DNA of 57,516 bases from an uncultured Candidatus Berkelbacteria bacterium (GCA_903851235.1 CAINNR010000008.1:1-57516), one strand, 5' to 3'; counted from the first letter of the stretch, positions 11,307-54,388 are shown. Translations and numbers: made by a program. Notes: generated from the sequence alone by a model not told the origin.

Positions 11307-11341
11307 ATATCCTCTTTCACAACCCCACCGGTTTGGTGGGC

Positions 11342-11415
11342 TTTTTTGTTGATATATACTTTAACATCTGCTAAATTTAATTCATCCTATGAAAGGGAGT
11401 GGTCCGGATGGGACG
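11342..11415 (+). repeat. Leader repeat copy A (terminator tail, promoter, RBS, first codons)
   Basis: 67 of 74 nt identical, ungapped, to 12245-12318. Confidence 0.92.
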
Positions 11416-12208
11416 AGATAGGCCGCGAGTGATTTCCTGCGCGTCGTCGGCGGCTAATCGATTCGCTTTGGTCGCGTCGGCTGTTGTTGGCTTCGATTCA
11501 ATTGCAAAGGTTGAACCGGTTGTCGGTAACATTCGGGTTAGACAGGTCTATAATCCGGACGGGCGTTTTACTTATGACCGGCTTCAGTTGGTTATCGTCG
11601 GTGATGTTAGAGTTCATCACCGTCAAGGTATCGAGGATTCAGACTGGAGATTGGGGTCAAGAATTCTTCATGGGATTACAATCGACCTTGATCATGTTGA
11701 GTTTCTCCCCACGCTTTGTCCGGGAGTGGTCGGCAAGGACACAGAAGACAGATCGGTATTTTGCGACTGGACCGGCATTAAGGTTTGGGAATTGATTAGC
11801 CGGTTGTCGAGAAGCAATGTCCCGGCGCCAATGGTTGTTGGCGCAAATTCCACTAATGAATCAAAACTGTCACTGCTGGCTTTACTTGCCAATGGCAATT
11901 ATCAGGAGCTCTGTGGCCATCAAGTCGATTTGAATTTTGACTGCAACACCGGTCCGGCGGTAGTTCAGCTTGTTCAGTCGGGGAAGTCTGAGGAATACAT
12001 GGAAACTCACGATTATAAGTTGCTTTCTTCGTTATACAGCACATCGAGAGTTAATGGAGTGATCGAAGGCGTGGTTGGGAACGAACTACATCGATATCTG
12101 ACTGTTCGTGGCAGCTGCGATGGGCACGGTCACGATGAATTGTATATGTCAGTTTTGGATGCCAATTTGATTTCCGGCTTGGTCAAATTGAAAAAACCAA
12201 AGTATTAA
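11408..12208 (+). CDS. Hypothetical protein, tandem paralog 2 of 3
   Basis: TTGATA-N17-TAAATT promoter, GAAAGGGAG RBS; ends NLISGLVKLKKPKY. Confidence 0.8.
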   Translation: MGRDRPRVISCASSAANRFALVASAVVGFDSIAKVEPVVGNIRVRQVYNPDGRFTYDRLQLVIVGDVRVHHRQGIEDSDWRLGSRILHGITIDLDHVEFLPTLCPGVVGKDTEDRSVFCDWTGIKVWELISRLSRSNVPAPMVVGANSTNESKLSLLALLANGNYQELCGHQVDLNFDCNTGPAVVQLVQSGKSEEYMETHDYKLLSSLYSTSRVNGVIEGVVGNELHRYLTVRGSCDGHGHDELYMSVLDANLISGLVKLKKPKY

Positions 12209-12244
12209 ATAGTCAGAACCATTTGCTCGCCGACTTGGCGGGCA

Positions 12245-12318
12245 TTTTTTATTGATATATACTTATAGATCTGTTAAATTTAATTCATCCTACGAAAGGG
12301 AGTGGTCCAGATGGGACG
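12245..12318 (+). repeat. Leader repeat copy B
   Basis: 67 of 74 nt identical to 11342-11415. Confidence 0.92.
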
Positions 12319-13096
12319 GAAGATCGTTGTTTCGCCGGAGTCGTCGGCTGAAGTAAAATGGGCATTTATTGTTTCTCTGATCAAACCTTTGGACAATTTC
12401 AGCCATTTGTATCGTTGCGGAGCCGGCATTAACATTCATGCCACTGTTGGGCCGGCGATTGATGAAAGTTTCGAGCCAATTTCTGCTCCAACGTTTTCCA
12501 ATGTTAAGCTTCGGCTGAAATGGGATAATCCAACTTTATTGATGCGAACGACCGGCAGAACGACAACAACCGAGCGTTTGTCTGAACTTTCATCTGATTA
12601 TCTGGAGTTGGTGGCGCCGAGATTGGGGATTGACGCGGTTTTGAATACCAGACAGTCTGAATATAGTTATCGACTCGATTTGCAGGCGATTATCCAGGGA
12701 CTGTTTTACGGTGAGGGTTACAACAAGGCAATGGGTAAGGTTAGTCCTGACTCAGATCCTTTGGCTAAACTTGGATTCATTTATTCCTGTTTGCGTTGTT
12801 TCGCCCCTGATGGTAGAGCGTGTTTGCCGACGATTTCCGGATTAATAATCCGCCTGAAATGGCCCGGAGGCGGGATTTATCACTGGATTGGCAGAAGAAT
12901 TTCGTCAAATTCAATGAAACAGTATTTGAGCGACATTGTCATGGGAGAAGTTGACGACTTCTATTTCTACAAGCCTTTCCATAATCCTTTGGACGCTAAG
13001 CGATTGTTAGTGGTAACCGGATCCAGTACCGGTAAAACACTAATTCTCAATATTGCGATGCGACATATTGTCTCAGGATTGATCAAAATGGATTAA
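12311..13096 (+). CDS. Hypothetical protein, tandem paralog 3 of 3
   Basis: Same leader as paralog 2; ends HIVSGLIKMD; terminator hairpin plus T-tract follows. Confidence 0.8.
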   Translation: MGRKIVVSPESSAEVKWAFIVSLIKPLDNFSHLYRCGAGINIHATVGPAIDESFEPISAPTFSNVKLRLKWDNPTLLMRTTGRTTTTERLSELSSDYLELVAPRLGIDAVLNTRQSEYSYRLDLQAIIQGLFYGEGYNKAMGKVSPDSDPLAKLGFIYSCLRCFAPDGRACLPTISGLIIRLKWPGGGIYHWIGRRISSNSMKQYLSDIVMGEVDDFYFYKPFHNPLDAKRLLVVTGSSTGKTLILNIAMRHIVSGLIKMD

Positions 13097-13250: not shown

Positions 13251-14849
13251 CCCGACTTGTATCATTAGTGTGACAAATTAAGTTTATCCACAATCTCCAT
13301 GGTTTCTTCCGGAATAGCTGAGCGCATTATTGTTATCTCGTCTGTCATTGTGTTTAAAATTTTGGCATCGGTTACTTTTTTGAATTGTTGAATGATTTTC
13401 TTGATTGATTTATTGGTTTTAAGTTCCATGTACCTACAGATACTCAGGGCGATAAAACAAATGAGCACGTGAGCCTCGATTGTCTGTTTTTTGAAGTGAT
13501 GGATTGGTCTCATTTGAAGATCGCTTTTGGCAATTCGAAAAGCATGTTCAACATGCCACAAGTCGTGATATTGTTGGATAATCATTTGATTATCAACTTT
13601 TCCCAAATTAGTGTAATAACCTTTAATACCAAGAAGGCTTTTTGTTTTCTTGATCAGTGTCTCATTCAGTTTTAAACTTGGTTTTTTGCTCTTGCCTGTG
13701 TTCTGAAGGAACTTAGCTCGTTTGATTTTACCGGGTTCTTTAAGTAAAGATTCGGCTTTGACGATCTGTTTTTCCATCTCTCGTTTATCCTTTTTGTAGC
13801 GGGTTAGAGAGAAACTTACAACCAGACTACCCAGTTTGGTTCTGATCTTCAGGTTGGTCCCATCTTTTCTTCCAAGCTCTCTGGAGACTCTCTCAATCGT
13901 AGCTGTCGGCAGGTTGGCCAGCCTAGCCCCAACAATGTAATGAAGTCGTTTACTTTTCAGTTCAGTAACATTGTCCCTACTGATCATTGCTGCATCGGCG
14001 ACCACAGTAAGGTTCTTGACTTGGTGATGCTGTTTAAAAGCAAGGATAACCGGAATGATCGTCTTACCCTCAAACTTGTTGCCTTCAAAGATTTCATAAG
14101 CTATTGGAAAGCCTTTATCATTTACAACCAACCCGATCAGTATTTGGGGCTGGTTTGATTTGCCGTCCTTAGAGAATCCGGGCTTTCGAAGTTCATCCTC
14201 ACCAAAGGCTTCGAAATACAGGCTGGTAACATCGTAAAAAACCAGGCTAAAGTTAAAACCCAGTTCATTCTTGGCGATATTAGTTACTGCGTCGATAACA
14301 GTATTTTTAGAGCCAACAAAATATTCCAGATGACGATAGAATTCAAGACGTGAATATTTAATACCGAACAACTCCTCCAGGAGTTCAAAGGAGCGCAGTT
14401 TAGAAGCCGGTTCAATGATTCGAATCAGGGCCAAGTCAAGAAGCATCTTGTCCTTGATCTTCATTAGGTCAAATCGCGATAACAGTTGATTTAGACATTC
14501 ATAGATAAAATTGTAACTAACTCCCAAATACTGACACTTACTCAGCGAGAACTGGTTTGATTCAGTAAATTTTAAGACCGGGAAAAGCTCGAACTGTTTC
14601 GATTCTTTTTTAATCCAGACCCGAGCAGAATCTTTTAAGACTTTTAGTTCATCTTCATTATGAGCACTACCAATATGTTTAACTACTATCAGTCTGCGAT
14701 ACTCATATCTAACAACTTGAACGGCAGTTGCTTTTGAGCTGGTTTTTGTTGTCCTAATATGAAACATGCTTCTAGTATGACAAAAACCCTATTTTGAATC
14801 AAATCACGCTCAAAGTTGTTAAGAGACCCCCAAAATGATACAAGTCGGG
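13251..14849 (-). mobile_element. IS1634-family insertion sequence
   Basis: Perfect 16-bp terminal inverted repeats CCCGACTTGTATCATT (13251-13266 / 14834-14849), long flanking direct repeat, one DDE transposase ORF. Confidence 0.93.
13265..14767 (-). CDS. IS1634-family DDE transposase
   Basis: VKHIGSAH N-terminus, FYDVTSLYFE, GFSKDGK, VVADAAM, WHVEHAFRIAKSDL. Confidence 0.93.
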   Translation of the reverse strand: MFHIRTTKTSSKATAVQVVRYEYRRLIVVKHIGSAHNEDELKVLKDSARVWIKKESKQFELFPVLKFTESNQFSLSKCQYLGVSYNFIYECLNQLLSRFDLMKIKDKMLLDLALIRIIEPASKLRSFELLEELFGIKYSRLEFYRHLEYFVGSKNTVIDAVTNIAKNELGFNFSLVFYDVTSLYFEAFGEDELRKPGFSKDGKSNQPQILIGLVVNDKGFPIAYEIFEGNKFEGKTIIPVILAFKQHHQVKNLTVVADAAMISRDNVTELKSKRLHYIVGARLANLPTATIERVSRELGRKDGTNLKIRTKLGSLVVSFSLTRYKKDKREMEKQIVKAESLLKEPGKIKRAKFLQNTGKSKKPSLKLNETLIKKTKSLLGIKGYYTNLGKVDNQMIIQQYHDLWHVEHAFRIAKSDLQMRPIHHFKKQTIEAHVLICFIALSICRYMELKTNKSIKKIIQQFKKVTDAKILNTMTDEITIMRSAIPEETMEIVDKLNLSH

Positions 14850-38108: not shown

Positions 38109-40919
38109 TCAAAGTGTTGTCTTGAAGGTGTAATCATTAGAACTGACGATGTCGTTGTTGGAATCAATGGAAACAACGCGGAAATGATAGGTTGTGTTTG
38201 GGGTTAGGGCGGTTAGACCGGCTGAATGATTAGTTGATAGTGCCGGATTTTTTGAAGTCGACAAAACATAATCGTTGTAATTGTCATGGGAAATTGTATC
38301 GTAGAAAACTTGACTTGTTCCACCGGAAGAAGTGACCCAAGCGACTGTCGCGCCGGAACTTGAGATGCTACCGGTGGAGACACCGGAGATTGTAAAATCA
38401 CTGTTGACAGAGAAAAAGGAAACTTCATGGGAGTCGGTTGTGCCGTTGACTCCGGTAGCGACGACCTTCAACACATGCCGGCCGGAAGCAACGGTGTTAA
38501 AATCGAAAGTTACCGAATATGGTGAGCTGCTATCGGACCCAACCGAAACATCATCAATAAAAAACTCAACTTTTTGTGTGTCTGCCGGCGCCAGAGTTGA
38601 TGCAGTTAGGGCTGTACTGCCACTGACAGTTTGATCCGCAGTCGGTGAATTGATTGAAACTACGATACTTGGACCGATGTCGCATGTACCGGCCGGTTGC
38701 GGGTTGTACAACCCGGCAGCGACTGCCCAGGCATGAACCGGACCCTCCCAAGCCGAATTATCCGGTCGCTCCGAGTGGACATTGGAGAAAATTTTTGTGT
38801 CAACCAAACTGTCCGGTGTACCGTCCGGTGCGACCAGGCCGTTGGATTTGCAAACTCGAACGACGACATTGACATCATCAGGTTTTGTCGGCAGCTGCCA
38901 TGAGGCGAAAATGTCGGTTGTGGTTTCTTTCGAATAGGCGGTCGGCAATTTGCTTGAGTATTTTTCGACCGTTACGGTTTGGATTCCAGCCGGGGCGACA
39001 AATTGATCTACCGGCTTACCGGCCATTTCCGTCGCCATAAATTGATGGAATATCGGAGCGGCAACAACCACACCATCAGCACCGGAGGACATTGGATGGT
39101 TATCATCATTACCAACCCAAACACCAACGGCCAGCGTTGGAGTATATCCGATTGTCCAGGCATCGCGAAAGTCGGTTGTTGTTCCGGTTTTGGCGGCGAC
39201 CGGTCGGTCAGTAAATTTCAACGCCGTGTTGGTACCGAAAACCATTGATCTTGAATTATTATCACTCATAATATTTTGCATTTCGTAGGCGATTTGCGGG
39301 TCAATTGCTTGTTTGCCTTTATCATCCACCGGTTTGTATTCGTAGACTGTTTTGCCACCACTATCAACAACCTTCAGCATGGTGTGAATGTCGTGATGGT
39401 TACCGTTGTTGGCGAAGGTTGCAAAACCGTTGGTGTGCTCTAAAAGTGATACTTCACCGACGCCAAGACCCAACGAGTCGCCATAACGATCCGGCTGATT
39501 AAGCGAGGTGATACCCATGTCGGAAGCGGTGGTTAAAATATTGTTGATGCCGATCAGGTCGGTGGTTTTGACCGCCGGAATATTTAGCGAATTGGCAATT
39601 GCTTGACGAATTGTTATCGGTCCGCGATTTTTTCCATCGTAATCATGCGGTGTGTAATTACCGCCGAAAGTTGTTGTCAGATCGAACAAGACCCTACTGG
39701 GTGAAAAATCGCTTCGTTTGAATGCGGTGGCATAAACGTATGGTTTAAATGACGACCCCGGCTGTCGGAGTGCAGTGGCGACATTAAAGTTGCCTTCATT
39801 GGCGGTGTCAAAGAAATCTTTTGAGCCGTCCATCGCCAAAACTTCGCCGGTTTTCGGATCAATCGCCACCAATGCGCCGTTTGAACCGCCATATTTTGTC
39901 ACTTTCGCCATTCCGGCAGAAACCGATTGTTCGGCGACTTTTTGTTCGTTGTAATCCAGCGTTGTGTAAATTGATAAGCCTTCCTTTTCAACTCTCTGTT
40001 CGCCAAATTGTGTCGCAGCTTGTTCCAAAACATACATTGAAAAATGTGGCGCCAGTATTGACATTTTTCGCGGTTGAACAATCGTTCCAACGGTTGTCGT
40101 ATCCTCTTTTTTCGCCGCATCAGCCTGATCTTTGGTGATGTATTTCATTTTGACCATTTGATCGAGAACGTAATTTCGGCGAATTATCAATTTGTCGGTG
40201 TGAGTGCCGTAAGGCGAATAGTATGTCGGTGCCTGCGGGATTGCCGCCATTGTCGCCGATTGGGCCAGGTCTAAATCTTTGGCCGATTTGTTATAGTACA
40301 TCTGCGATGCCGCTTCGACTCCGGCCGCTTGGCCGCCGTAAGGAATTTCATTCAGATACATGGTGAGTATTTGGTCTTTGGAATACATAAACTCCAATTC
40401 GATCGAAAGAATCGCTTCTTTGATTTTTCTTGAGATTGTCTGATTGGAGTAAAGTAAAGCGTTTTTGACATATTGCTGAGTAATCGTCGAACCACCCTGT
40501 GTTCCCGTACCGATATGGAAGATGTCGCGAATCGCCGCTCTGGCAATGCCTTTAAAGTTGATACCATGATTTTGATAGAACGATTGATCCTCAACCGAAA
40601 CGGTTGCATCTTTAATATTTTGCGGAATTTGATCTGAGGTAACCAGAGTACGCTTCAAATCACCGGTTTCGTAGAGCAAAAGACTGTTCCGATCATAAAT
40701 TTTTGTCGATTGAGACGGTTGCATCTGGGCGATTTTTGCCGGTGTCGGCAAATCCTTGGCATACCAAGCGAAAACAATTGAAATTGACAACAAAACCGCC
40801 AAGAGTGTAAAGCCCAAAACTTTAAACAGCCTTTTTTTATCAAGCGGTTTGCGTTTTTTCGGCTTGCCTGACTTCGAACGCAAGCTCAACGGGTTTTTGA
40901 ATCCGAATTTTATTGCCAT
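38109..40919 (-). CDS. Class A penicillin-binding protein with C-terminal Ig-like and FN3-like domains
   Basis: EDQSFYQNHG and GGSTITQQY transglycosylase motifs; QPGSSFKP, SLN, KTGT transpeptidase motifs; TYHFRVVS C-terminus. Confidence 0.93.
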   Translation of the reverse strand: MAIKFGFKNPLSLRSKSGKPKKRKPLDKKRLFKVLGFTLLAVLLSISIVFAWYAKDLPTPAKIAQMQPSQSTKIYDRNSLLLYETGDLKRTLVTSDQIPQNIKDATVSVEDQSFYQNHGINFKGIARAAIRDIFHIGTGTQGGSTITQQYVKNALLYSNQTISRKIKEAILSIELEFMYSKDQILTMYLNEIPYGGQAAGVEAASQMYYNKSAKDLDLAQSATMAAIPQAPTYYSPYGTHTDKLIIRRNYVLDQMVKMKYITKDQADAAKKEDTTTVGTIVQPRKMSILAPHFSMYVLEQAATQFGEQRVEKEGLSIYTTLDYNEQKVAEQSVSAGMAKVTKYGGSNGALVAIDPKTGEVLAMDGSKDFFDTANEGNFNVATALRQPGSSFKPYVYATAFKRSDFSPSRVLFDLTTTFGGNYTPHDYDGKNRGPITIRQAIANSLNIPAVKTTDLIGINNILTTASDMGITSLNQPDRYGDSLGLGVGEVSLLEHTNGFATFANNGNHHDIHTMLKVVDSGGKTVYEYKPVDDKGKQAIDPQIAYEMQNIMSDNNSRSMVFGTNTALKFTDRPVAAKTGTTTDFRDAWTIGYTPTLAVGVWVGNDDNHPMSSGADGVVVAAPIFHQFMATEMAGKPVDQFVAPAGIQTVTVEKYSSKLPTAYSKETTTDIFASWQLPTKPDDVNVVVRVCKSNGLVAPDGTPDSLVDTKIFSNVHSERPDNSAWEGPVHAWAVAAGLYNPQPAGTCDIGPSIVVSINSPTADQTVSGSTALTASTLAPADTQKVEFFIDDVSVGSDSSSPYSVTFDFNTVASGRHVLKVVATGVNGTTDSHEVSFFSVNSDFTISGVSTGSISSSGATVAWVTSSGGTSQVFYDTISHDNYNDYVLSTSKNPALSTNHSAGLTALTPNTTYHFRVVSIDSNNDIVSSNDYTFKTTL

Positions 40920-43311: not shown

Positions 43312-45453
43312 TTAAATATCCAACTCGAAAACTTTGGTTCCGGAGATCAGCCAAAGTTTTTTTAATTTTTCATTAACGGCAAAAGTTGTTAGCGCTAAAT
43401 TGCTGTCCATAACAAACTGTTTTTGATAGACGCCGAGTTTCGTAAATTGTAGGACTCGATTAGCGGCGCTGTCGACAATATAAATTGAATTTGAACTTTG
43501 ATCGGTAAATATCTTTTTCGGAGAGGTAATTTTCGAATCCGGTGTTGGAAGCGCTGAAAGGGCAAAAGTGCTGTCCTCAACCGATTTGGCAATTTTTATC
43601 GCTGAGCCGTCGTTTTTTAATACAAAGACATTGCCGTCAACCGCCAGGTCGAGACTATCTTTCAAGGAAACCGCTTGTTTTGTGACATACAGGGAGCCTT
43701 TTGAGTAGCTGCCGGCGGAAAGTGTATGTTTCCAAATTTGACCATTGGTGCCGTCCAATAAATAGATATTTGATGAATAAGTCGCGATTGCACTTGACTT
43801 TTCCCAACTGCCACCGGTTACGACGACAGGGGTGGAGATTGATTTTGAACTGATATCGAGCTTTGCGACTGCCGGCAAATCAGTTAATATCAACAGAGAA
43901 TTGTCACTGTCATTATATGTAGCGTCAACAACTTTCCCGAGTTTGTTATTAATTTGACCGTAACTTTCAGCGGTTTTTGCCCGGGTATCATATTCGGAAA
44001 TTTTGCCGTCGGCAGTGATCGAAAAGAGGCTGGCGCCAACGGCGTAAACAGCTGTCGAATTTGTCGAAAGTGAGAATGTCGGAGTGGAATTCCCGACGAT
44101 TCTGGTTGCCGAATTTAAACTATCCAACTTTGCTTGGATTTGGGCCAACAAATTTTTTGCTTCATCGGCTATCGCCGGAGTTCCGGTTGCTTTTGTCGCG
44201 GCATCACGGGCGGAGATTAATTCATCCTTGCCGGCGGATTTTTTCAAGCCCAAGTCATCCAAGGCTTTCGAATACATACTCCGGGCCGCGTCCAGACTGG
44301 TTAAGTTTTGGCTGGAAGTGGTAATATTCTGATTTTTTTTGCTGTTGATTTGAATTTTGACGAAACCGATTATTAAAAGTATGACAACGATCGTTATATA
44401 AAGGTATTTTCTATTTTCCGGTTTTGTCAGCGCCTTGGCCCACAAAAGCAGGTTGGCGAAAAAATATTGCAGATATGACAGAAATCCCGAAGATTTCTTC
44501 GACCGCGAGTTAAAATGATTGATTTTCGGAACGCTGCCGAATCGCTCGGTTAGCGGTTGCAAGCTCTTGCCGGAGGAGTTTTTTATTCGGCCGCCAACAC
44601 TTTTGGCACCGGCGGAGATTTTCGGCTGAATTTGTTTGACCCAAAATTCAGCGAACTTTCTGGCCCCCCGGCCGCTGGCTTTTGCCCCAAAATCCAAGCC
44701 TTTAAAAAACAGTTTTGTGTAATGAATCGGCGCTGAATCGGGAATATCATCCAAGAGAATAATTTCCGGTTTGTCATCATCTATTTGATCAGATTTCCCA
44801 TCGGCTAAATCGAAAATCATCAAATTTACGTCCTTTATTTTTGATCGGCGCAAATTTTTAGTAATTTCAGCAATCACTTCCCGGTAGTTCAGTGTGCCAA
44901 ACATTTGTCTCAGGCGATCAAGCGACAGATGAGAATAAAGCTGACTATTGGCGATTATCACTTTATCGTCGGCGGCGACACTGCCGTCAATTATCGAAAT
45001 AAAAGTTTTTAACGGATGGACTTCATCGCCATCAACCGGCTTTTCGGTTATATGAGAAATTTTATTGCCACGGAACAGATAGCCGGAAATATTGCCGGTT
45101 TGGGAAAAAACCAACTCGTTATCGGAGATTAAACCGACAATGGCGTTTAATTTACCGACCCATTCGTGTTCGCCGGACTGTGACAGCTCACCGAGTGCGG
45201 CATTGATCTTTTTAATTACAACTTCAAAGCTCTCGGTTTTATCACCGTCGCCCTGCCAATCATCACCGAGTGTTCTGACAATGGCATTTTTAATTTTTTC
45301 GCCATCAACCCAAGGTGTATCAATTTCAATCAAATAAAAAAATCTGTCCTGTGAGTCCGCAGGTTCGATTGTTCCAACAAAGAGAAATCGCTCCTTGTGC
45401 TTTCCCTTGGTCGCAATTTGCCCAATTCTAGCTACAAGATTTTTATCTGACAT
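43312..45453 (-). CDS. Membrane protein: degenerate PP2C-like N-terminal domain, single TM, C-terminal beta-propeller
   Basis: LNAIVG...QTGNISGYLFR...DDKVIIANSQL...DVNLMIF PP2C-like pattern; TM YLYITIVVILLIIGFV; NHL-like repeats (SNIYLLD, GNVFVL, NSIYIVDSAANRVLQF). Confidence 0.7.
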   Translation of the reverse strand: MSDKNLVARIGQIATKGKHKERFLFVGTIEPADSQDRFFYLIEIDTPWVDGEKIKNAIVRTLGDDWQGDGDKTESFEVVIKKINAALGELSQSGEHEWVGKLNAIVGLISDNELVFSQTGNISGYLFRGNKISHITEKPVDGDEVHPLKTFISIIDGSVAADDKVIIANSQLYSHLSLDRLRQMFGTLNYREVIAEITKNLRRSKIKDVNLMIFDLADGKSDQIDDDKPEIILLDDIPDSAPIHYTKLFFKGLDFGAKASGRGARKFAEFWVKQIQPKISAGAKSVGGRIKNSSGKSLQPLTERFGSVPKINHFNSRSKKSSGFLSYLQYFFANLLLWAKALTKPENRKYLYITIVVILLIIGFVKIQINSKKNQNITTSSQNLTSLDAARSMYSKALDDLGLKKSAGKDELISARDAATKATGTPAIADEAKNLLAQIQAKLDSLNSATRIVGNSTPTFSLSTNSTAVYAVGASLFSITADGKISEYDTRAKTAESYGQINNKLGKVVDATYNDSDNSLLILTDLPAVAKLDISSKSISTPVVVTGGSWEKSSAIATYSSNIYLLDGTNGQIWKHTLSAGSYSKGSLYVTKQAVSLKDSLDLAVDGNVFVLKNDGSAIKIAKSVEDSTFALSALPTPDSKITSPKKIFTDQSSNSIYIVDSAANRVLQFTKLGVYQKQFVMDSNLALTTFAVNEKLKKLWLISGTKVFELDI

Positions 45454-45613
45454 TTCCGTATTATTTTTCCTATTCGTATTTTTGTAGGAGTTATGTCTAT
45501 ATTCTAGCAGATTTTTTCAAAATCAAGCAAGAGAAGGAAAAAAAATTGCAATTTATCGGAGTTTTGATACTATAAAAGCGAAGGTCCGACATCAAGCCAT
45601 AAGGAGCGATGAA

Positions 45614-45865
45614 ATGGCACCCAAGCTGAGGAAGCTGAATCCATTCGTCGAACTCTTGATTGGAGCTTTTCTGATATGCGTTGGGTTGCTTTTGATGGGC
45701 AATAACTGGAAAGGAACTCTCTGCGAGTTTGGATCGGCAATCGGTTTGGTTGTTGGTTTAGCTGGTTTATTTTTCATCAGCTGTCTTGTCAAAGATTGGT
45801 TCTTTGAATATCGGCGCCGGCGCGACTATACCGCTGGCAAAACAACTTCTCGACCAAACGAATAG
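45614..45865 (+). CDS. Small two-TM hypothetical protein
   Basis: AAGGAG RBS; two hydrophobic helices. Confidence 0.7.
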   Translation: MAPKLRKLNPFVELLIGAFLICVGLLLMGNNWKGTLCEFGSAIGLVVGLAGLFFISCLVKDWFFEYRRRRDYTAGKTTSRPNE

Positions 45866-45872
45866 CTTCTTC

Positions 45873-45897
45873 GCGGCGGTTGCAACTAACCACCGCT
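45873..45897. terminator. Hairpin plus T-tract; reverse-complement copy of the AGCGGTG motif
   Basis: GCGGCGGTT-GCAACT-AACCACCGCT. Confidence 0.65.
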
Positions 45898-45987
45898 TTT
45901 TTCATATCAGCCGAAAAATCTTGAAAAATTTCAGCCAATCTGATATAAATTAGTCACGCCGACAACACGCGCAGGGAGAGATGATGG

Positions 45988-46383
45988 ATGGAAGAGACAC
46001 TTCGGATTTTGCTTTTTGGTTGCCATTCGATTTTGGTTCCCCGTCAGATTGCTGGCATTAATACCGAGGTTCAAGGTAGTGACAAAGATTGGTCGGGTTC
46101 AGACGCCAAATACACTTTCCCACCGAGCGAGCGCACATTATTGCCGGTCCTAACCGATAACTTTGATTTCGGAGTCATCGGCAACAATGCGGGGCTTGGT
46201 GTTCTAAAGGCCCAGTTGGTGCCAACCGGATTGCGGTATAAGTTTATTATCGTTTGGAACGTTTGTCCGGGCAACAATGAAGGACTCTACACTTTGCTCG
46301 GTTATCAACACTTTAGCGCCAGAGAAGGATTGAGCCATAAGCTCGAGGAACTTTGGGCGGAAAGACAATTAAATTCGAGTTAG
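45988..46383 (+). CDS. Hypothetical protein
   Basis: TTGAAA-N17-TATAAA promoter (45921-45949), AGGGAG RBS. Confidence 0.7.
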   Translation: MEETLRILLFGCHSILVPRQIAGINTEVQGSDKDWSGSDAKYTFPPSERTLLPVLTDNFDFGVIGNNAGLGVLKAQLVPTGLRYKFIIVWNVCPGNNEGLYTLLGYQHFSAREGLSHKLEELWAERQLNSS

Positions 46384-46400
46384 TTTTATCATTTTTCCCA

Positions 46401-46431
46401 AGCGGTGGCCGAAGTTGGTCGCCGTTTTTTT
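46401..46431 (+). terminator. AGCGGTGGCC-loop-GGTCGCCGT hairpin plus T-tract
   Basis: Shared motif with 47466, 47917 and 48442. Confidence 0.75.
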
Positions 46432-46534
46432 ATAACACCTGGAAAATCATCCGAAAAACATTGACAGTGCCAGAATATTCTGTCACAATGTTGGTGAGAT
46501 CTCGACTCATCCAGAGGAAAGGCAGGTGTTGGGG

Positions 46535-47467
46535 ATGCGAGTTAGTGTCGACGATCACCATGCTCGTTTGGATAGATGCAAGGATTTGATCGGGAAGGGA
46601 TCAACTAAAGAAGAAATTGCCTTAGATTTGGGCGTTCGCCTTGGTACGATAAGGGACTACATCAGGACATTGGGGATGAAAGTTGCCAGTGTGCCAACTC
46701 GCAAAAAGCCGGTTAGATGCAAGACGGCTAGACGATTGAAGTTAGAGGAAGCAATCATTGCCGGGATTGATGCCAATCTGACTTTGAATGCGATCGGTCT
46801 GCTCCTTGACATCAGCCGCGAAAGAGTTAGACAGATAGTTGATGAGATGAAAGAAGAGGGAATTCTCTCAGCTGATTTTACCAATGCGGTTACCGCCTAC
46901 GAAGCTGCTAGAAGATCAGGTCTGTCCCATGACAAAGTCTATGATGCTTGTAAATATGGGCTGGTCAAATGTTTCAAGGCCTATGGTGGAAAGGGTGTAC
47001 TTTATCGGATCTTACCATCAGAACTTGAAAGTCTTGCCTTGGCTGTTGAGCTGCTAAACCAAAAGTGCTGTCCGGTTTGCCGGAAGTATTTTCATCCTGT
47101 GCCGAAATCGGGATACAGGGGATGTTGTTCCTCTATTTGTTCCAATCAAAGATACAAGGAAGTTCGGAAAGCTGAAAAGAGGAAAGGGATCTGTAATCCC
47201 AACTGCTTGGCGATGAAAATCAAGGCGAAATTGCCTAAACCCGACGGGTCCTGGTTGAGTCTGGCTGAAGCAGTGGCCAAATACAATGTGACCGATATAC
47301 GGTTTAGACATTTGGCTGACAATGGTGTTCTCGCTACCAGAGATCATCCGACAAAGATTTCGAAAGGGAAACCGGTAAAGCAAGTTTCTGGCAATCAAGC
47401 CGAATTTATCAGCCAAGTTTACCACGGGGAGATCGATTTGGAGCAATTGCCAATTGCAACATTCTAG
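46535..47467 (+). CDS. Multi-HTH DNA-binding protein with zinc-finger-like module
   Basis: TTGACA-N17-CACAAT promoter (46461-46489); HTH-like segments TKEEIALDLGVRLGTI, TLNAIGLLLDISRERVRQI, TAYEAARRSGLSHDKV, LSLAEAVAKYNV; CPVC...CCSSIC. Confidence 0.75.
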   Translation: MRVSVDDHHARLDRCKDLIGKGSTKEEIALDLGVRLGTIRDYIRTLGMKVASVPTRKKPVRCKTARRLKLEEAIIAGIDANLTLNAIGLLLDISRERVRQIVDEMKEEGILSADFTNAVTAYEAARRSGLSHDKVYDACKYGLVKCFKAYGGKGVLYRILPSELESLALAVELLNQKCCPVCRKYFHPVPKSGYRGCCSSICSNQRYKEVRKAEKRKGICNPNCLAMKIKAKLPKPDGSWLSLAEAVAKYNVTDIRFRHLADNGVLATRDHPTKISKGKPVKQVSGNQAEFISQVYHGEIDLEQLPIATF

Positions 47468-47496
47468 CGGTGGCCGCCGTGGCCGCCGTTTTTTTT
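47466..47496 (+). terminator. AGCGGTGGCC-loop-GGCCGCCGT hairpin plus T-tract
   Basis: Overlaps the TAG stop; shared motif. Confidence 0.75.
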
Positions 47497-47562
47497 AATC
47501 TTTACATTGGAGTATCTATTTGCTAATATCCAATTAGATAGAAGATAATCCTCCAAAGGAGC

Positions 47563-47934
47563 GTGGTTGACGTGGGTGCTTGTCACTCTCTTATTACGCT
47601 CGCCGGTGCAATTTCTGTCGCAAGATTACCGTTTGTCGAAATCATCAGATCCGCCATGCTAACTTTGCCGGCAATTACGACTGGTGATCCCGAATTGAAG
47701 AGAGCTGCACTTGAGTTTTTTGAGACCAGCGTTATGTTGTTTGCCTTGCAAACCGGTGAGCTGGGAACCGACATTGTCGATCAGCTCTTAGATGCAATCT
47801 CCGATTACGGAGAAAACAAAAATGCTGTTCTGGAGCGACTGTTGGGGCAAATCGTTCGCTGGGATCTTGCCAAAGGTATTGCGTTGTGTAGACTTTCGCA
47901 GTTTGGTTTGATTCAGAGCGGTGACTCATTGTGA
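47563..47934 (+). CDS. Hypothetical helical protein
   Basis: TTTACA-N17-TAATAT promoter (47501-47529), AAGGAG RBS. Confidence 0.65.
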   Translation: MVDVGACHSLITLAGAISVARLPFVEIIRSAMLTLPAITTGDPELKRAALEFFETSVMLFALQTGELGTDIVDQLLDAISDYGENKNAVLERLLGQIVRWDLAKGIALCRLSQFGLIQSGDSL

Positions 47935-47950
47935 GCCGCCGCATTTTTTT
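47917..47950 (+). terminator. AGCGGTGACTC-loop-GAGCCGCCGC hairpin plus T-tract
   Basis: Spans the stop codon; shared motif. Confidence 0.7.
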
Positions 47951-48033
47951 TAAAGCCCAAAAATATTGACATTGGTGATTTTTGTTGATAACTTTTCATT
48001 AGTCGTACGATGACTAGAAAAGGGGGCCGTGAA

Positions 48034-48393
48034 ATGTTCGACGGTTTCAGCGGGCTGCTTCATTATCTTGGGAAATACACTGGCAAATTATCGGAGAGCG
48101 ATCGGGTTGAATTGCGTCAGAAGATTCGGCTCTCAGCAATCTCTGCTCGGGACTATTTTCGCTTCAATTCCACAACCGCTGATATTTATTTTACTGCACT
48201 TGCAGAAGCTGCCAAAGAATTTGGCTTGGAATATGATCCGTTTGTCGAGGGGAAAATGGCTGCTGATTTGGCGCCGGTTAAGTTATTGGATCGGCTTACT
48301 GCCGGTCAGATCGGCTCAGTCTCTGACCCCGAAGTTGTCGGTTTGAAAAAATTCCTCCTAGAATATGCGAGACAAATTAATCTAGCTGGATAG
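48034..48393 (+). CDS. Hypothetical protein
   Basis: TTGACA at 47966, AAGGGGG RBS before MFDGF. Confidence 0.7.
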   Translation: MFDGFSGLLHYLGKYTGKLSESDRVELRQKIRLSAISARDYFRFNSTTADIYFTALAEAAKEFGLEYDPFVEGKMAADLAPVKLLDRLTAGQIGSVSDPEVVGLKKFLLEYARQINLAG

Positions 48394-48441
48394 TAAGATC
48401 TCGCTAGAGACTGTCTGAAATCAGAGAGTTACAATTAGCCA

Positions 48442-48470
48442 AGCGGTGTCCAATTGGATTGCCGCTATTT
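48442..48470 (+). terminator. AGCGGTGTCC-loop-GGATTGCCGCT hairpin
   Basis: Shared motif; lies between convergent genes. Confidence 0.7.
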
Positions 48471-48473
48471 TAT

Positions 48474-48884
48474 TTAGTTCTTCTTATAGTTCCCATAGTC
48501 GCCTTGATTTTCATTGCGATCGCCATTTTTAAGTAAAGTGGCGCCAATTTTGAATTTTCGAATTTTACCCTCGGCATCAAGAAATTCCTCTTTGTTTGAT
48601 TTTTGGTAGAAATCCAAAAGTTCAGCCGAAAGAATATCTTTCAGTACCGACAAATCCAACTGGTTGTTTTTTATCGTCTCGGTCAAAGTTTGATTTTCCG
48701 GCATACTGAGAAGCTGATCCTTAATCGCTTTCTTCTTCAGATTAGCGGTTTTTGCTTCGTCTTGGGCTTGAACATACTCCAAATCGTTTTCCAACTGTTG
48801 TTTAATCGCGTCCTTGGCGGCTTTAATCTCCGCTTGATTTTTTTCCAACTCGGCGATTCTTGCCTGAATTTGTGAATTCTCCAT
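48474..48884 (-). CDS. Hypothetical coiled-coil protein
   Basis: 136-aa ORF rich in E/K/Q heptads. Confidence 0.8.
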   Translation of the reverse strand: MENSQIQARIAELEKNQAEIKAAKDAIKQQLENDLEYVQAQDEAKTANLKKKAIKDQLLSMPENQTLTETIKNNQLDLSVLKDILSAELLDFYQKSNKEEFLDAEGKIRKFKIGATLLKNGDRNENQGDYGNYKKN

Positions 48885-49107: not shown

Positions 49108-49926
49108 TCAGATTTCTTCCCAAATCTGACCGCCAACACCATGTTCTATAATCAGGTCGATGGTCGTAAATTGGATATGAAGATCGTCCGGATTGTCCTC
49201 GTCCTCCAGCAATCTTTTGGCCATCCGTTTCGAATAAATCAAGGTCGGGAGGTTGGGACAGACGATCATAATCGTTGGGAAGGTTTTGTTAATTTCATCC
49301 CACTCGTAGCCATTGTAAAGCTCGATGAAATTTTTAACCTGTCGCCTGATCGAAAAGCGAGGTAGAGTCGGCGCTATTAGGGCAAAAAGAAAGTAGTCTG
49401 ATTTTGTTCGATTGCCGGTTTTCTTTTTCTTCAGTCTCTTAATCACCAGATCGGTTTTGTACTGCGATAAAAAGTTAAAACGGTATTCGGGATCGGCCAG
49501 GTCGGTGGAAGTGGCAACCAAATAACTAAGCTCATATTCTTCCTCGGACTTTCGGCTTTGAATTGCCGCAGCTTTGAGATCCAAAACGATTTTGCCGACA
49601 AGAATGGATTTTTCAATAAAGTCATTTGAGCGGTCTTTGAGCCGATAGAATGTTCCAAGTACCTCCAGCGAACAATCAACCTGGGTTTTTAGAAATCTTA
49701 TGCCATTTAACCCCAGATAGTAGATCGCCGGCTTGGTATTTTCTCCAAATTTATTCGAGTAAATTCGATTAAGGAAGTCTTTTTGTCTTAGGTCGCCTAA
49801 CCAATCGTTGACTCTTTTGTGGTATTTATGATTAAGGAAGATTTGAATTTGTTTTCGGTTTAGGAATTTGTATTTATAGAGCAGTTTGAGTATTTCTTGT
49901 TGTTTTGTAGTTATCTTGTTAGCCAT
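49108..49926 (-). CDS. Replication-relaxation (Replic_Relax-like) family protein
   Basis: ITTKQQEILKLLYKYKFLNRKQI winged-HTH, PAIYYLGLNG, TDL and FPTIMIVCP nuclease-like core. Confidence 0.78.
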   Translation of the reverse strand: MANKITTKQQEILKLLYKYKFLNRKQIQIFLNHKYHKRVNDWLGDLRQKDFLNRIYSNKFGENTKPAIYYLGLNGIRFLKTQVDCSLEVLGTFYRLKDRSNDFIEKSILVGKIVLDLKAAAIQSRKSEEEYELSYLVATSTDLADPEYRFNFLSQYKTDLVIKRLKKKKTGNRTKSDYFLFALIAPTLPRFSIRRQVKNFIELYNGYEWDEINKTFPTIMIVCPNLPTLIYSKRMAKRLLEDEDNPDDLHIQFTTIDLIIEHGVGGQIWEEI

Positions 49927-50135
49927 GGTTTCTTGGATTAGTTTTTTCGTTTGCGTATTTACCGTTATTACCTACACCGACCAAACCTATATTTGTGAAG
50001 GTAGATGACACAAATCTTCTATATTTAATATCAAATTAGACAGATTTTAGTATCAGCTCGCTGATACAATAATGCCGGCGATTTTTTAGCCTGTTTCAGC
50101 CTAATAAAAGATTTAAGAGCTGAAGTTGTTAGACT

Positions 50136-50211
50136 TGGTCGGGGTGACCTGACTTGAACAGGCGACCTCGCGCACCCCATGCGCGCGCGCTACCAACTGC
50201 GCCACACCCCG
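50136..50211 (-). tRNA. tRNA-Pro(GGG)
   Basis: Full cloverleaf CGGGGTG...anticodon loop ATGGGGT...TTCAAGT...CACCCCGACCA. Confidence 0.96.
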
Positions 50212-50597: not shown

Positions 50598-50759
50598 TTA
50601 CTTGTCTTCTTTATTTGCCGTGCGCAAACAACGGGTGCAAAGAGTTGTACCCGCGACTTTTTGTAAATTTGGTTTGAAAAATCTTTTGGTGTGCCGTTGC
50701 GAGTGGGAAACATTCGAGCCGACAACTTTGGATTTTCCGCAAATTGAGCAGATAGCCAT
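50598..50759 (-). CDS. rpmB: 50S ribosomal protein L28 (zinc-binding form); not in the supplied ORF track
   Basis: Manual translation [53 protein letters not shown]. Confidence 0.95.
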
Positions 50760-51614: not shown

Positions 51615-51645
51615 AGCCGGTGGCCACAATGTCGTGGTCACCGGT
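51615..51645 (-). terminator. CCGGTGGCCAC/GTGGTCACCGG hairpin with A-tract on its left
   Basis: Terminator of the minus-strand gene; resembles the AGCGGTGGCC motif. Confidence 0.7.
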
Positions 51646-54052: not shown

Positions 54053-54388
54053 TCATGTCGGGAGTGACAAACCGGCTTCGGCTATCAATTTATCGCGTTT
54101 TTCGATTTCCTGCTTAAAGCAATCCTCGCAAAGAATATCGTCGGACTTCGGTTCGAAGGGGACTTCGGCTTTTCGCTTACATTTTTTGCATCTGATCCAA
54201 TTCATCGGGTGTTTTTCCCGCAGTACAGCTTTATATTTTTCGGCGCACGGTTTGCACCGCTTGGGAACATTCTGTAAACCTTTATCGTGAAAAAACTGTT
54301 GCTCGCCAACAGTCCAAATGAATTTGTCGCCACAGTCCTTGCAGTTTAGCACTTGGTCTTCAAATTGTTTCTGATTAGTTTCCATCAT
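54053..54388 (-). CDS. Zinc-ribbon protein (zf-trcl-like plus CxxC-x17-CxxC)
   Basis: CKDCGDKFIWTVGEQQFF...PKRCKPC; CKKC...CEDC. Confidence 0.88.
   Translation of the reverse strand: MMETNQKQFEDQVLNCKDCGDKFIWTVGEQQFFHDKGLQNVPKRCKPCAEKYKAVLREKHPMNWIRCKKCKRKAEVPFEPKSDDILCEDCFKQEIEKRDKLIAEAGLSLPT

Follow-up and report, generated by a model that had tools for sequence, protein, structure and literature searches.

What makes five dissimilar genes in a row end in the same stem? We consider this question for a DNA stretch of 57,516 nucleotides (the window) from an uncultured Candidatus Berkelbacteria bacterium (GCA_903851235.1, CAINNR010000008.1:1-57516). At 45.5-50.2 kb the window contains an island of about 4.7 kb, and in this island each of five tandem orphan genes (ORFans) ends in a related hairpin (hp1 to hp5; Table 1). 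The hairpins are ordinary Rho-independent transcription terminators. We propose that they share a stem by common descent, with new copies made from one terminator, or the terminator used again, each time an ORFan came in or was replaced. We put the probability of this explanation at roughly 0.55.

Five terminators with a common stem

A preliminary description of this locus reported five related hairpins, and we found all five where it had placed them. Folded as + strand RNA, each is 23-27 nt long, with 9-12 pairs in the stem and 3-6 nt in the loop; the energies range from -12.9 to -18.5 kcal/mol (z between -2.8 and -4.1 against shuffled sequences). All five ORFs are on the + strand, and each hairpin lies on the coding strand at a distance of 0-48 nt from a stop codon. 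In the case of ORFan 4, the last codons and the TGA stop even fall within the 5' arm and loop of hp4. The U-tract 3' of the stem is T6-T8 for hp1 to hp4, with one A as a spacer in hp4. The tract of hp5, which lies between convergent genes and is the weakest of the five, is weaker (TATTTTATTT). Because the hairpins combine a G+C-rich stem and T-tail with these energies and with placement at stop codons, we read them as Rho-independent terminators, and the transcript ends are predicted from this anatomy.

The stems are more alike than termination requires, as had been claimed. GCGG(T/C)G...C(G/A)CCG is common to hp1-hp5, and AGCGGTG opens four of the five on the + strand. The other one, hp1, starts with GCGGCGG and ends with CCACCGC, which is the reverse complement of the other four (also correctly described before), and it has AGCGGTG on the - strand. 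The fixed non-Watson-Crick pair is real as well: four hairpins have T.G as the fifth pair of the stem, and the C/A of hp1 on the + strand is T.G on the - strand. There are no conserved bases outside the paired stem (the 5' A merely pairs with the first U of the tail), and the loops differ in all five hairpins. Most of the differences between stems are G.U-compatible transitions, and those between hp2 and hp3 are wobble-compatible. The likeness is mosaic: AGCGGTGGCC and CGCCGT7 are common to hp2 and hp3, CCAAGCGGTG is common to hp2 and hp5, and CCGCCGC is found both in hp4 and in the reverse complement of hp1.

Within the window, the stem is confined to the array. AGCGGTG occurs 10 times, as compared to 3.65 ± 1.81 times in shuffled sequences, and none of 100 shuffles reached 10, so the motif scan bears out the preliminary description. 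Five of these 10 copies are inside the 2.6-kb array, 0.45-1.07 kb apart, and each is at the 5' base of a stem; there is no other member of the family in the 57 kb. The array stem is not the window's generic terminator: a terminator scan of the whole window identified about 15 further candidates that are convincing, all with other stems. When we compared all intergenic spacers by local alignment, four pairs from the array were among the best 7 of 666 (Mann-Whitney p = 0.002).

Could the five stems have become alike by chance or convergence? Strong terminators in a genome with 42% G+C need G+C-rich stems, and five might have ended alike. Identical stems (AGCGGTGGCC...GGYCGCCGTTTT) do arise independently in unrelated organisms: a strict pattern for the stem had 19 singleton matches in JGI metagenomes, mostly in high-G+C contigs that are unrelated to the window. 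A looser, degenerate hairpin pattern had at least 120 matches in GTDB genomes, which were singletons across all phyla among the matches listed, and 26 unrelated singleton matches in viral sequences (IMG/VR). (The source genome is absent from the GTDB matches listed, so the GTDB scan is a control for clustering only.) Also, the hairpin resembles its own reverse complement, which makes the inversion of hp1 less significant. However, no second match at the same locus was seen in any of the ~165 loci from other organisms, among the matches listed, and the shuffles of AGCGGTG do not account for the count in the window. The stem is present in 5 of 5 adjacent terminators and in 0 of the ~15 others, and therefore convergence alone is improbable. 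The 24-base stem pattern arises sporadically by convergence elsewhere, as scattered singletons among the matches listed, so convergence is rare at any one site, and clustering of the pattern is peculiar to this island.

We considered several other sequences as possible members of the family. The near copy that had been reported at 51615 (a hairpin at 51616-51645) does not belong: it has only the 8-mer CGGTGGCC in common with the array (~1.8 occurrences are expected by chance), it has T-A at the "wobble" position, and it terminates a gene on the - strand, so we did not count it. The 13-mer TTCCCAAGCGGTG, from hp2 and its 5' flank, occurs again at 54249-54261 (-) inside the zf_Tbcl gene, and the 12-mer AAGCGGTGGTTA, from the reverse complement of hp1, occurs again at 39524-39535 (+) inside the PBP1 gene. 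Only ~0.002-0.007 of each of these recurrences would be expected, but chance is the probable cause, as both lie in coding sequence and lack a partner arm. We also note that GGCCGCCGT stands twice in direct succession in hp3 (47472-47489), a perfect tandem repeat of 9 nt, so two pairing registers are possible.

Origin of the shared stem

Each hairpin closes a unit that appears to be self-contained, with a predicted promoter, a ribosome-binding site, an ORFan, and a terminator. The preliminary description gave four of the five genes their own sigma70 promoter; we found a plausible sigma70-type promoter for all five, and a Shine-Dalgarno-like sequence ahead of each ORF. Each of the four spacers between the ORFs has a hairpin, a T-run, an A-rich stretch, a -35 box, and a -10 box. 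That the proteins are unrelated orphans holds up: in pairwise comparisons of the five, z was at most 1.8, and we found no Pfam, PHROG, or NCBIfam families in them except for helix-turn-helix (HTH) motifs in the 313-aa protein. This protein had no homologue but itself among 5.8 billion proteins. At 90% identity, clustering leaves the array proteins of 83, 131, and 119 aa and the adjacent 136-aa protein as singletons, and the exact sequence of the 120-aa protein, as submitted, was absent from the same collection of protein clusters. A single-sequence AlphaFold2 (AF2) model of ORFan 2 was unusable (predicted local distance difference test, or pLDDT, of 36). The G+C content of the array genes (46-48%) is slightly higher than that of core genes (41.7 ± 3.6%), which is not decisive. 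The hairpins of the array belong to a known class, namely intrinsic terminators in ORFan units that resemble phage morons or the promoter early stem-loop (PeSL) modules of T4-type phages.

Under our explanation, one terminator, together with the A-rich promoter region beside it, would have been copied or reused while recombination in or close to the terminator brought in ORFans or swapped them, a route also proposed for the spread of phage morons and of T4-type PeSL modules. Later, the stems would have changed little under selection for pairing, with G.U-compatible transitions as the main changes allowed, and the loops and flanks, free of this constraint, would have drifted. A stem should evolve slowly, since a single change disrupts a pair unless it is a transition that yields G.U. 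The wobble-compatible differences between hp2 and hp3, the differing loops, and the mosaic likeness match descent from one terminator with differential decay, which is the simplest account of the common stem.

Another site in this genome shows a regulatory module that is common to adjacent but dissimilar genes, as a mirror-image precedent. The genes at 11399-12208 and 12302-13096 are adjacent and encode proteins of ~265 aa each, with no Pfam match and no detectable similarity to each other. They have different upstream terminators, but share a near-identical promoter/leader of ~58 nt (11341-11398 and 12244-12301) that runs into the first codons (MGR).

This gene pair can also be read in favor of tandem duplication of a whole unit, gene and terminator together, after which the coding parts diverged or were replaced and the stems were held by pairing. 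The units of the array are indeed in tandem and co-oriented, and the proteins of two of them are similar in length (119 and 120 aa). On the other hand, the proteins range from 83 to 313 aa, their predicted types differ (membrane, HTH, helical), they have no pairwise similarity, and the units show no conservation at their 5' ends. We consider duplication of whole units to be unlikely.

It is decidedly improbable, in our view, that the stem is instead a site for sequence-specific recognition, in RNA or in double-stranded DNA, at which binding or processing co-regulates the five units. The reader might be the 313-aa protein with its several HTH motifs, which is encoded in the array itself, or an antiterminator or RNase. 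A conserved stem with variable loops and a fixed non-Watson-Crick position would suit this idea. However, no base outside the stem is conserved, the inverted hp1 would give a C/A mismatch rather than G.U in RNA, and homologues that could show covariation were not found anywhere.

Several observations weigh against common descent of the stems. There are only five copies, and the sequence they have in common is short (7-12 nt per arm). The similarity among the promoters of the units is not clearly above that of a generic sigma70 promoter with an A-tract. The motif of hp1 is inverted relative to its T-tail, which simple copying of a terminator with its tail does not predict; to explain hp1, one must assume that the sequence was inverted or that this pair underwent a G-to-A change independently. 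The specificity of the stem was measured within the 57-kb window, and the orphan status of the island's ORFans other than the 313-aa protein was judged against family libraries. Finally, we found parts of the array in about 20 contigs, which come from more than 10 samples and are colinear with the window and 99.96-100% identical to it. Among them we saw no gain, loss, or reordering of cassettes and no recombination product, indel, or alternative order. The ends of the contigs do not fall at the hairpins. These contigs represent one clonal population, and we did not find a genome at an intermediate distance. Overall, we infer that the hairpins descend from one copy and that the genes may have arrived by recombination at these modules.

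Table 1. Features of the array, the island, and related elements. Energies are in kcal/mol for the + strand RNA; P1, P2, and P5 were read from the sequence. The last three rows are in relatives.
Feature	Position	Strand	Description
Promoter P1	45546-45573	+	TTGCAA, 16-nt spacer, TGaTACTAT
ORFan 1	45614-45865	+	83 aa, two predicted membrane helices; singleton cluster, on 10 contigs
hp1	45873-45896	+	GCGGCGGTT-GCAACT-AACCACCGC then T6; ends 83-aa gene; starts 7 nt past TAG stop; -12.9, z = -4.0 against shuffles
Promoter P2	45921-45949	+	TTGAAA, 17-nt spacer, TATAAA; CCGAAAAA ahead of it
ORFan 2	45988-46383	+	131 aa
hp2	46400-46426	+	AAGCGGTGGCC-GAAG-TTGGTCGCCGTT then T-run; ends 131-aa gene; 17 nt past stop; -17.3
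Promoter P3	46461-46489	+	TTGACA, 17-nt spacer, CACAAT with extended TG; CCGAAAAA ahead of it
ORFan 3	46526-47467	+	313 aa, several HTH motifs, Cys-rich stretch
hp3	47466-47489	+	AGCGGTGGCC-GCCGT-GGCCGCCGT then T8; ends 313-aa HTH gene; overlaps TAG stop; -18.5
Promoter P4	47501-47529	+	TTTACA, 17-nt spacer, TAATAT
ORFan 4	47572-47934	+	120 aa from GTG at 47572; 123 aa from 47563
hp4	47918-47942	+	GCGGTGACTC-ATTGT-GAGCCGCCGC then A + T8; ends 120/123-aa gene; -14.7
Promoter P5	47966-47994	+	TTGACA, 17-nt spacer, TAACTT
ORFan 5	48034-48393	+	119 aa from ATG at 48034; 127 aa from 48010
hp5	48442-48466	+	AGCGGTGTCC-AATT-GGATTGCCGCT then ATTTTATTT; ends 119/127-aa gene; -13.1, z = -2.8
136-aa ORFan	48474-48884	-	Rich in charged residues, coiled-coil-like by eye; same orientation as Replic_Relax; island cargo
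Replic_Relax	49108-49926	-	272 aa, PF13814, MOBC-type; conserved core gene of island family
Non-coding region upstream of Replic_Relax	49927-50090	-	Inverted repeat 50050-50067; 40-nt block 49957-49996
tRNA-Pro(GGG)	50136-50211	-	Encoded CCA, apparently intact (ARAGORN); right island edge
Element locus in L155	7673-10813		Example of island family
Element locus in L157	240-3484		Example of island family
Element locus in L159	7783-10816		Example of island family

The island and its family

The island lies between the gene for a 713-aa protein and tRNA-Pro. In a related genome (L186), the gene order is zf_Tbcl, a 222-aa gene, M50 peptidase, rpmB, the 713-aa gene, ArgRS, TyrRS, PBP1, RadA, and RecJ. 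This order matches the flanks of the window, with rpmB directly beside the 713-aa gene and the island absent. Since L186 has the same flanks without the island, the segment at 45.5-50.2 kb in the window is an insertion. In another relative (L185), the 713-aa gene also adjoins ArgRS.

The 713-aa protein itself (43312-45453, - strand) has no match in Pfam, PHROG, or NCBIfam, and it has 5224 homologues of the same length, so we consider its gene to be a core gene. It is a conserved uncharacterised protein of this lineage that is syntenic with ArgRS in relatives. On the other side of the island, rpmB (ribosomal protein L28, 53 aa, 50598-50759, - strand) lies in what looks like non-coding sequence between tRNA-Pro and the gene for the M50 peptidase, and it is kept in L186. 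The equivalent place in L186 is without a tRNA. Rfam has no match in 45.4-51 kb, and tRNA-Pro was not listed by Rfam cmscan at the gathering threshold or at E ≤ 1.

The Replic_Relax gene links this island to a wider family. The protein matches PF13814 with 32.5 bits (the cut-off is 25.3), and its 421 homologues are from Berkelbacteria, Saccharibacteria, or Patescibacteria where they are named. Its AF2 model (pLDDT of 91) has a MarR-like winged-helix N-terminal domain and an alpha/beta C-terminal domain, and has weak matches to the PaqCI endonuclease. The fold assigned to PF13814 is PD-(D/E)XK (PMC3424549), and the counterparts of this family in streptococcal mobilizable elements are the MOBC relaxases (Coluzzi et al. 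2017, PMC5357655).

We examined five lineages of relatives with DNA sequence (L154-156, L157-158, L159-161, L181, and L182-183). In all five, a gene of ~104-115 aa precedes Replic_Relax divergently, and in most of them a large serine recombinase of 515-602 aa is next, with its 3' end overlapping tRNA-Tyr or tRNA-Ser. In the L184 lineage, a 371-aa gene is in place of the recombinase. The cargo downstream of Replic_Relax is different every time: AbiEii with Fic; a branched-chain ABC transporter; a pair of 297-aa proteins; or a diversity-generating retroelement (bAvd, RVT_1, Lcl_C). The core of the family is thus the large serine recombinase, the ~105-aa gene, and the Replic_Relax/MOBC-type protein, with a variable cargo slot downstream. 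The family is widespread in Patescibacteria, and we did not find a description of it in the papers we searched.

In the window, tRNA-Pro is 210 bp upstream of Replic_Relax, and the recombinase and the small gene are absent. Searching the window with the serine recombinases of three relatives (tblastn) gave no match, and we found no remnants of a recombinase or of the ~105-aa gene. We also found no att direct repeats at the flanks of the island. Large serine recombinases leave only a very short crossover core, so direct repeats are not expected. The island had no blastn match in collections of phages and plasmids, Replic_Relax had no tblastn match in plasmids and was not found in IMG/VR, and no PHROG structural matches were found in the element, so it is not a prophage. 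The island is a recombinase-less remnant of a Patescibacteria family of integrative, probably mobilizable, elements.

The ~170 bp upstream of Replic_Relax are conserved across relatives whose protein is only 69-80% identical. This region holds GTATCAGCTCGCTGATAC, and its 40-nt block is near-invariant. It is a candidate origin of transfer (oriT) or operator, and its inverted repeat appears to be a better candidate than the five terminators for the substrate of the relaxase-like protein. We did not find the AGCGGTG hairpin in the islands of these relatives.

The preliminary description suggested a cassette-capture locus beside tRNA-Pro and Replic_Relax. A slot for variable cargo by these two genes is indeed present, but we do not find that the hairpins are its recombination sites. 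Content varies between lineages, as the Replic_Relax cargo of relatives is entirely different and L186 is free of the island, and not within the population, where the order is fixed.

Comparison with known systems

Which documented process could have built such an array? In T4-type phages, PeSL modules, which join a terminator and a promoter, flank ORFans and recombine (Arbiol et al. 2010, PMC2839356; Comeau et al. 2014, PMC4122927). Both in these phages and in the array, the intergenic module is a composite of a stem-loop terminator, an A/T-rich stretch, and a sigma70-type promoter, and it is repeated between small ORFans in a hyper-variable region of a mobile genome. Unlike the PeSLs, the array is in a chromosomal island of a Patescibacterium rather than in a T4-like phage, it clearly conserves only the stem arms of 7-12 nt and not the whole module, and its contigs show no recombination products, indels, or mini-circles. 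We infer by analogy that modular shuffling mediated by PeSLs is the closest documented process for the assembly of the array.

A more specific version of this idea is that the spacers, each with a hairpin and a promoter, are PeSL-like exchange modules whose stems serve as crossover points, outside phages and in the cargo slot of a mobilizable island of Patescibacteria. At the hairpins, ORFan units would be gained, lost, or inverted, perhaps in the form of small circles, and hp1 would be the scar of one such inversion. We consider this unlikely. If it were true, then ultra-small bacteria would have a way to sample new genes that is independent of an integrase, and if the modules mediate exchange, then PeSL-type shuffling extends from T4 phages to mobile islands of the Candidate Phyla Radiation (CPR), whose mechanisms of gene flux are poorly known. 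If the stems are only inherited terminators, then the array is a tidy, ordinary case of ORFans as autonomous, insulated units in an island. The precise definition of the island against a syntenic relative, its family, and the conserved upstream element are the more reusable findings.

Phage morons seem to be a looser parallel than PeSLs. Morons are self-contained insertions of a promoter, a gene, and a terminator in lambdoid prophages, and they are usually single insertions with unrelated terminators. Like a moron, each ORFan of the array is an autonomous unit inside a mobile element, with its own promoter and intrinsic terminator. In contrast, the array has five units in tandem with related terminators, and the element is not a prophage.

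The island as a whole resembles the MOBC mobilizable elements in its PF13814 gene, its adjacency to a tRNA, its variable cargo slot, its insertion relative to a syntenic genome, and the large serine recombinase of its relatives. It differs in that the window's island is without the recombinase and the ~105-aa partner, and the role of relaxase and oriT in this clade is putative.

The preliminary description instead likened the hairpins to attC or REP (repetitive extragenic palindromic) recombination substrates. On this reading, the hairpins would take up or reorder cassettes as single-stranded substrates, and might be cut by an integrase, by a RAYT (REP-associated tyrosine transposase), or by the Replic_Relax protein. 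The likeness is that imperfect hairpins with a fixed mismatch, one of them inverted, follow each of a series of unrelated small genes, and that the slot for these ORFan "cassettes", with a tRNA and a relaxase-like gene beside it, can be shown to vary among relatives. But attC sites are 57-141 nt long, with R''-L''/L'-R' boxes and a GTTRRRY core; IntI, attI, and Pc are adjacent, and the cassettes are mostly promoterless. The hairpins of the array are short, canonical, T-tailed terminators without these boxes or extrahelical bases, neither GTTRRRY nor RYYYAAC is present at the bases of the five hairpins, and the genes have their own promoters. No integrase domain was found in the island or in the flanking ORFs that were scanned, and there was no tyrosine integrase or Y1 transposase among the ORFs scanned (these cover the window outside of 21.8-35 kb).

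REP elements and their REPIN arrangements are scattered in extragenic sequence throughout a genome, in high copy number and frequently paired at short distance in inverted orientation, along with a cognate RAYT, which is a Y1 transposase. Like the hairpins of the array, they are imperfect palindromes of short length that lie by the 3' ends of genes. They may have either orientation, and some also serve as terminators or stabilisers of mRNA. However, the copies in the array are confined to 2.6 kb rather than dispersed in the 57 kb, with no close inverted pairs and no conserved 5' tetranucleotide outside the stem, and there was no RAYT among the window's scanned ORFs. All of the contigs have one gene order. 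As for Replic_Relax, nicking of the hairpins by this protein is unlikely because its close homologues are in islands without the hairpin, and these islands have a different inverted repeat, conserved upstream of Replic_Relax. We conclude that the recombination-substrate idea for the hairpins is unsupported, and we consider it very improbable.

The only transposase among the scanned ORFs is a DDE_Tnp_1 (IS4-like) gene at 13265-14767 (-), between a tandem gene cluster and the mraZ/dcw cluster. At the start of the window, the 3' part of the 23S rRNA (1-692) is interrupted by a group I intron (445-692), and the 5S rRNA is at 1584-1700.

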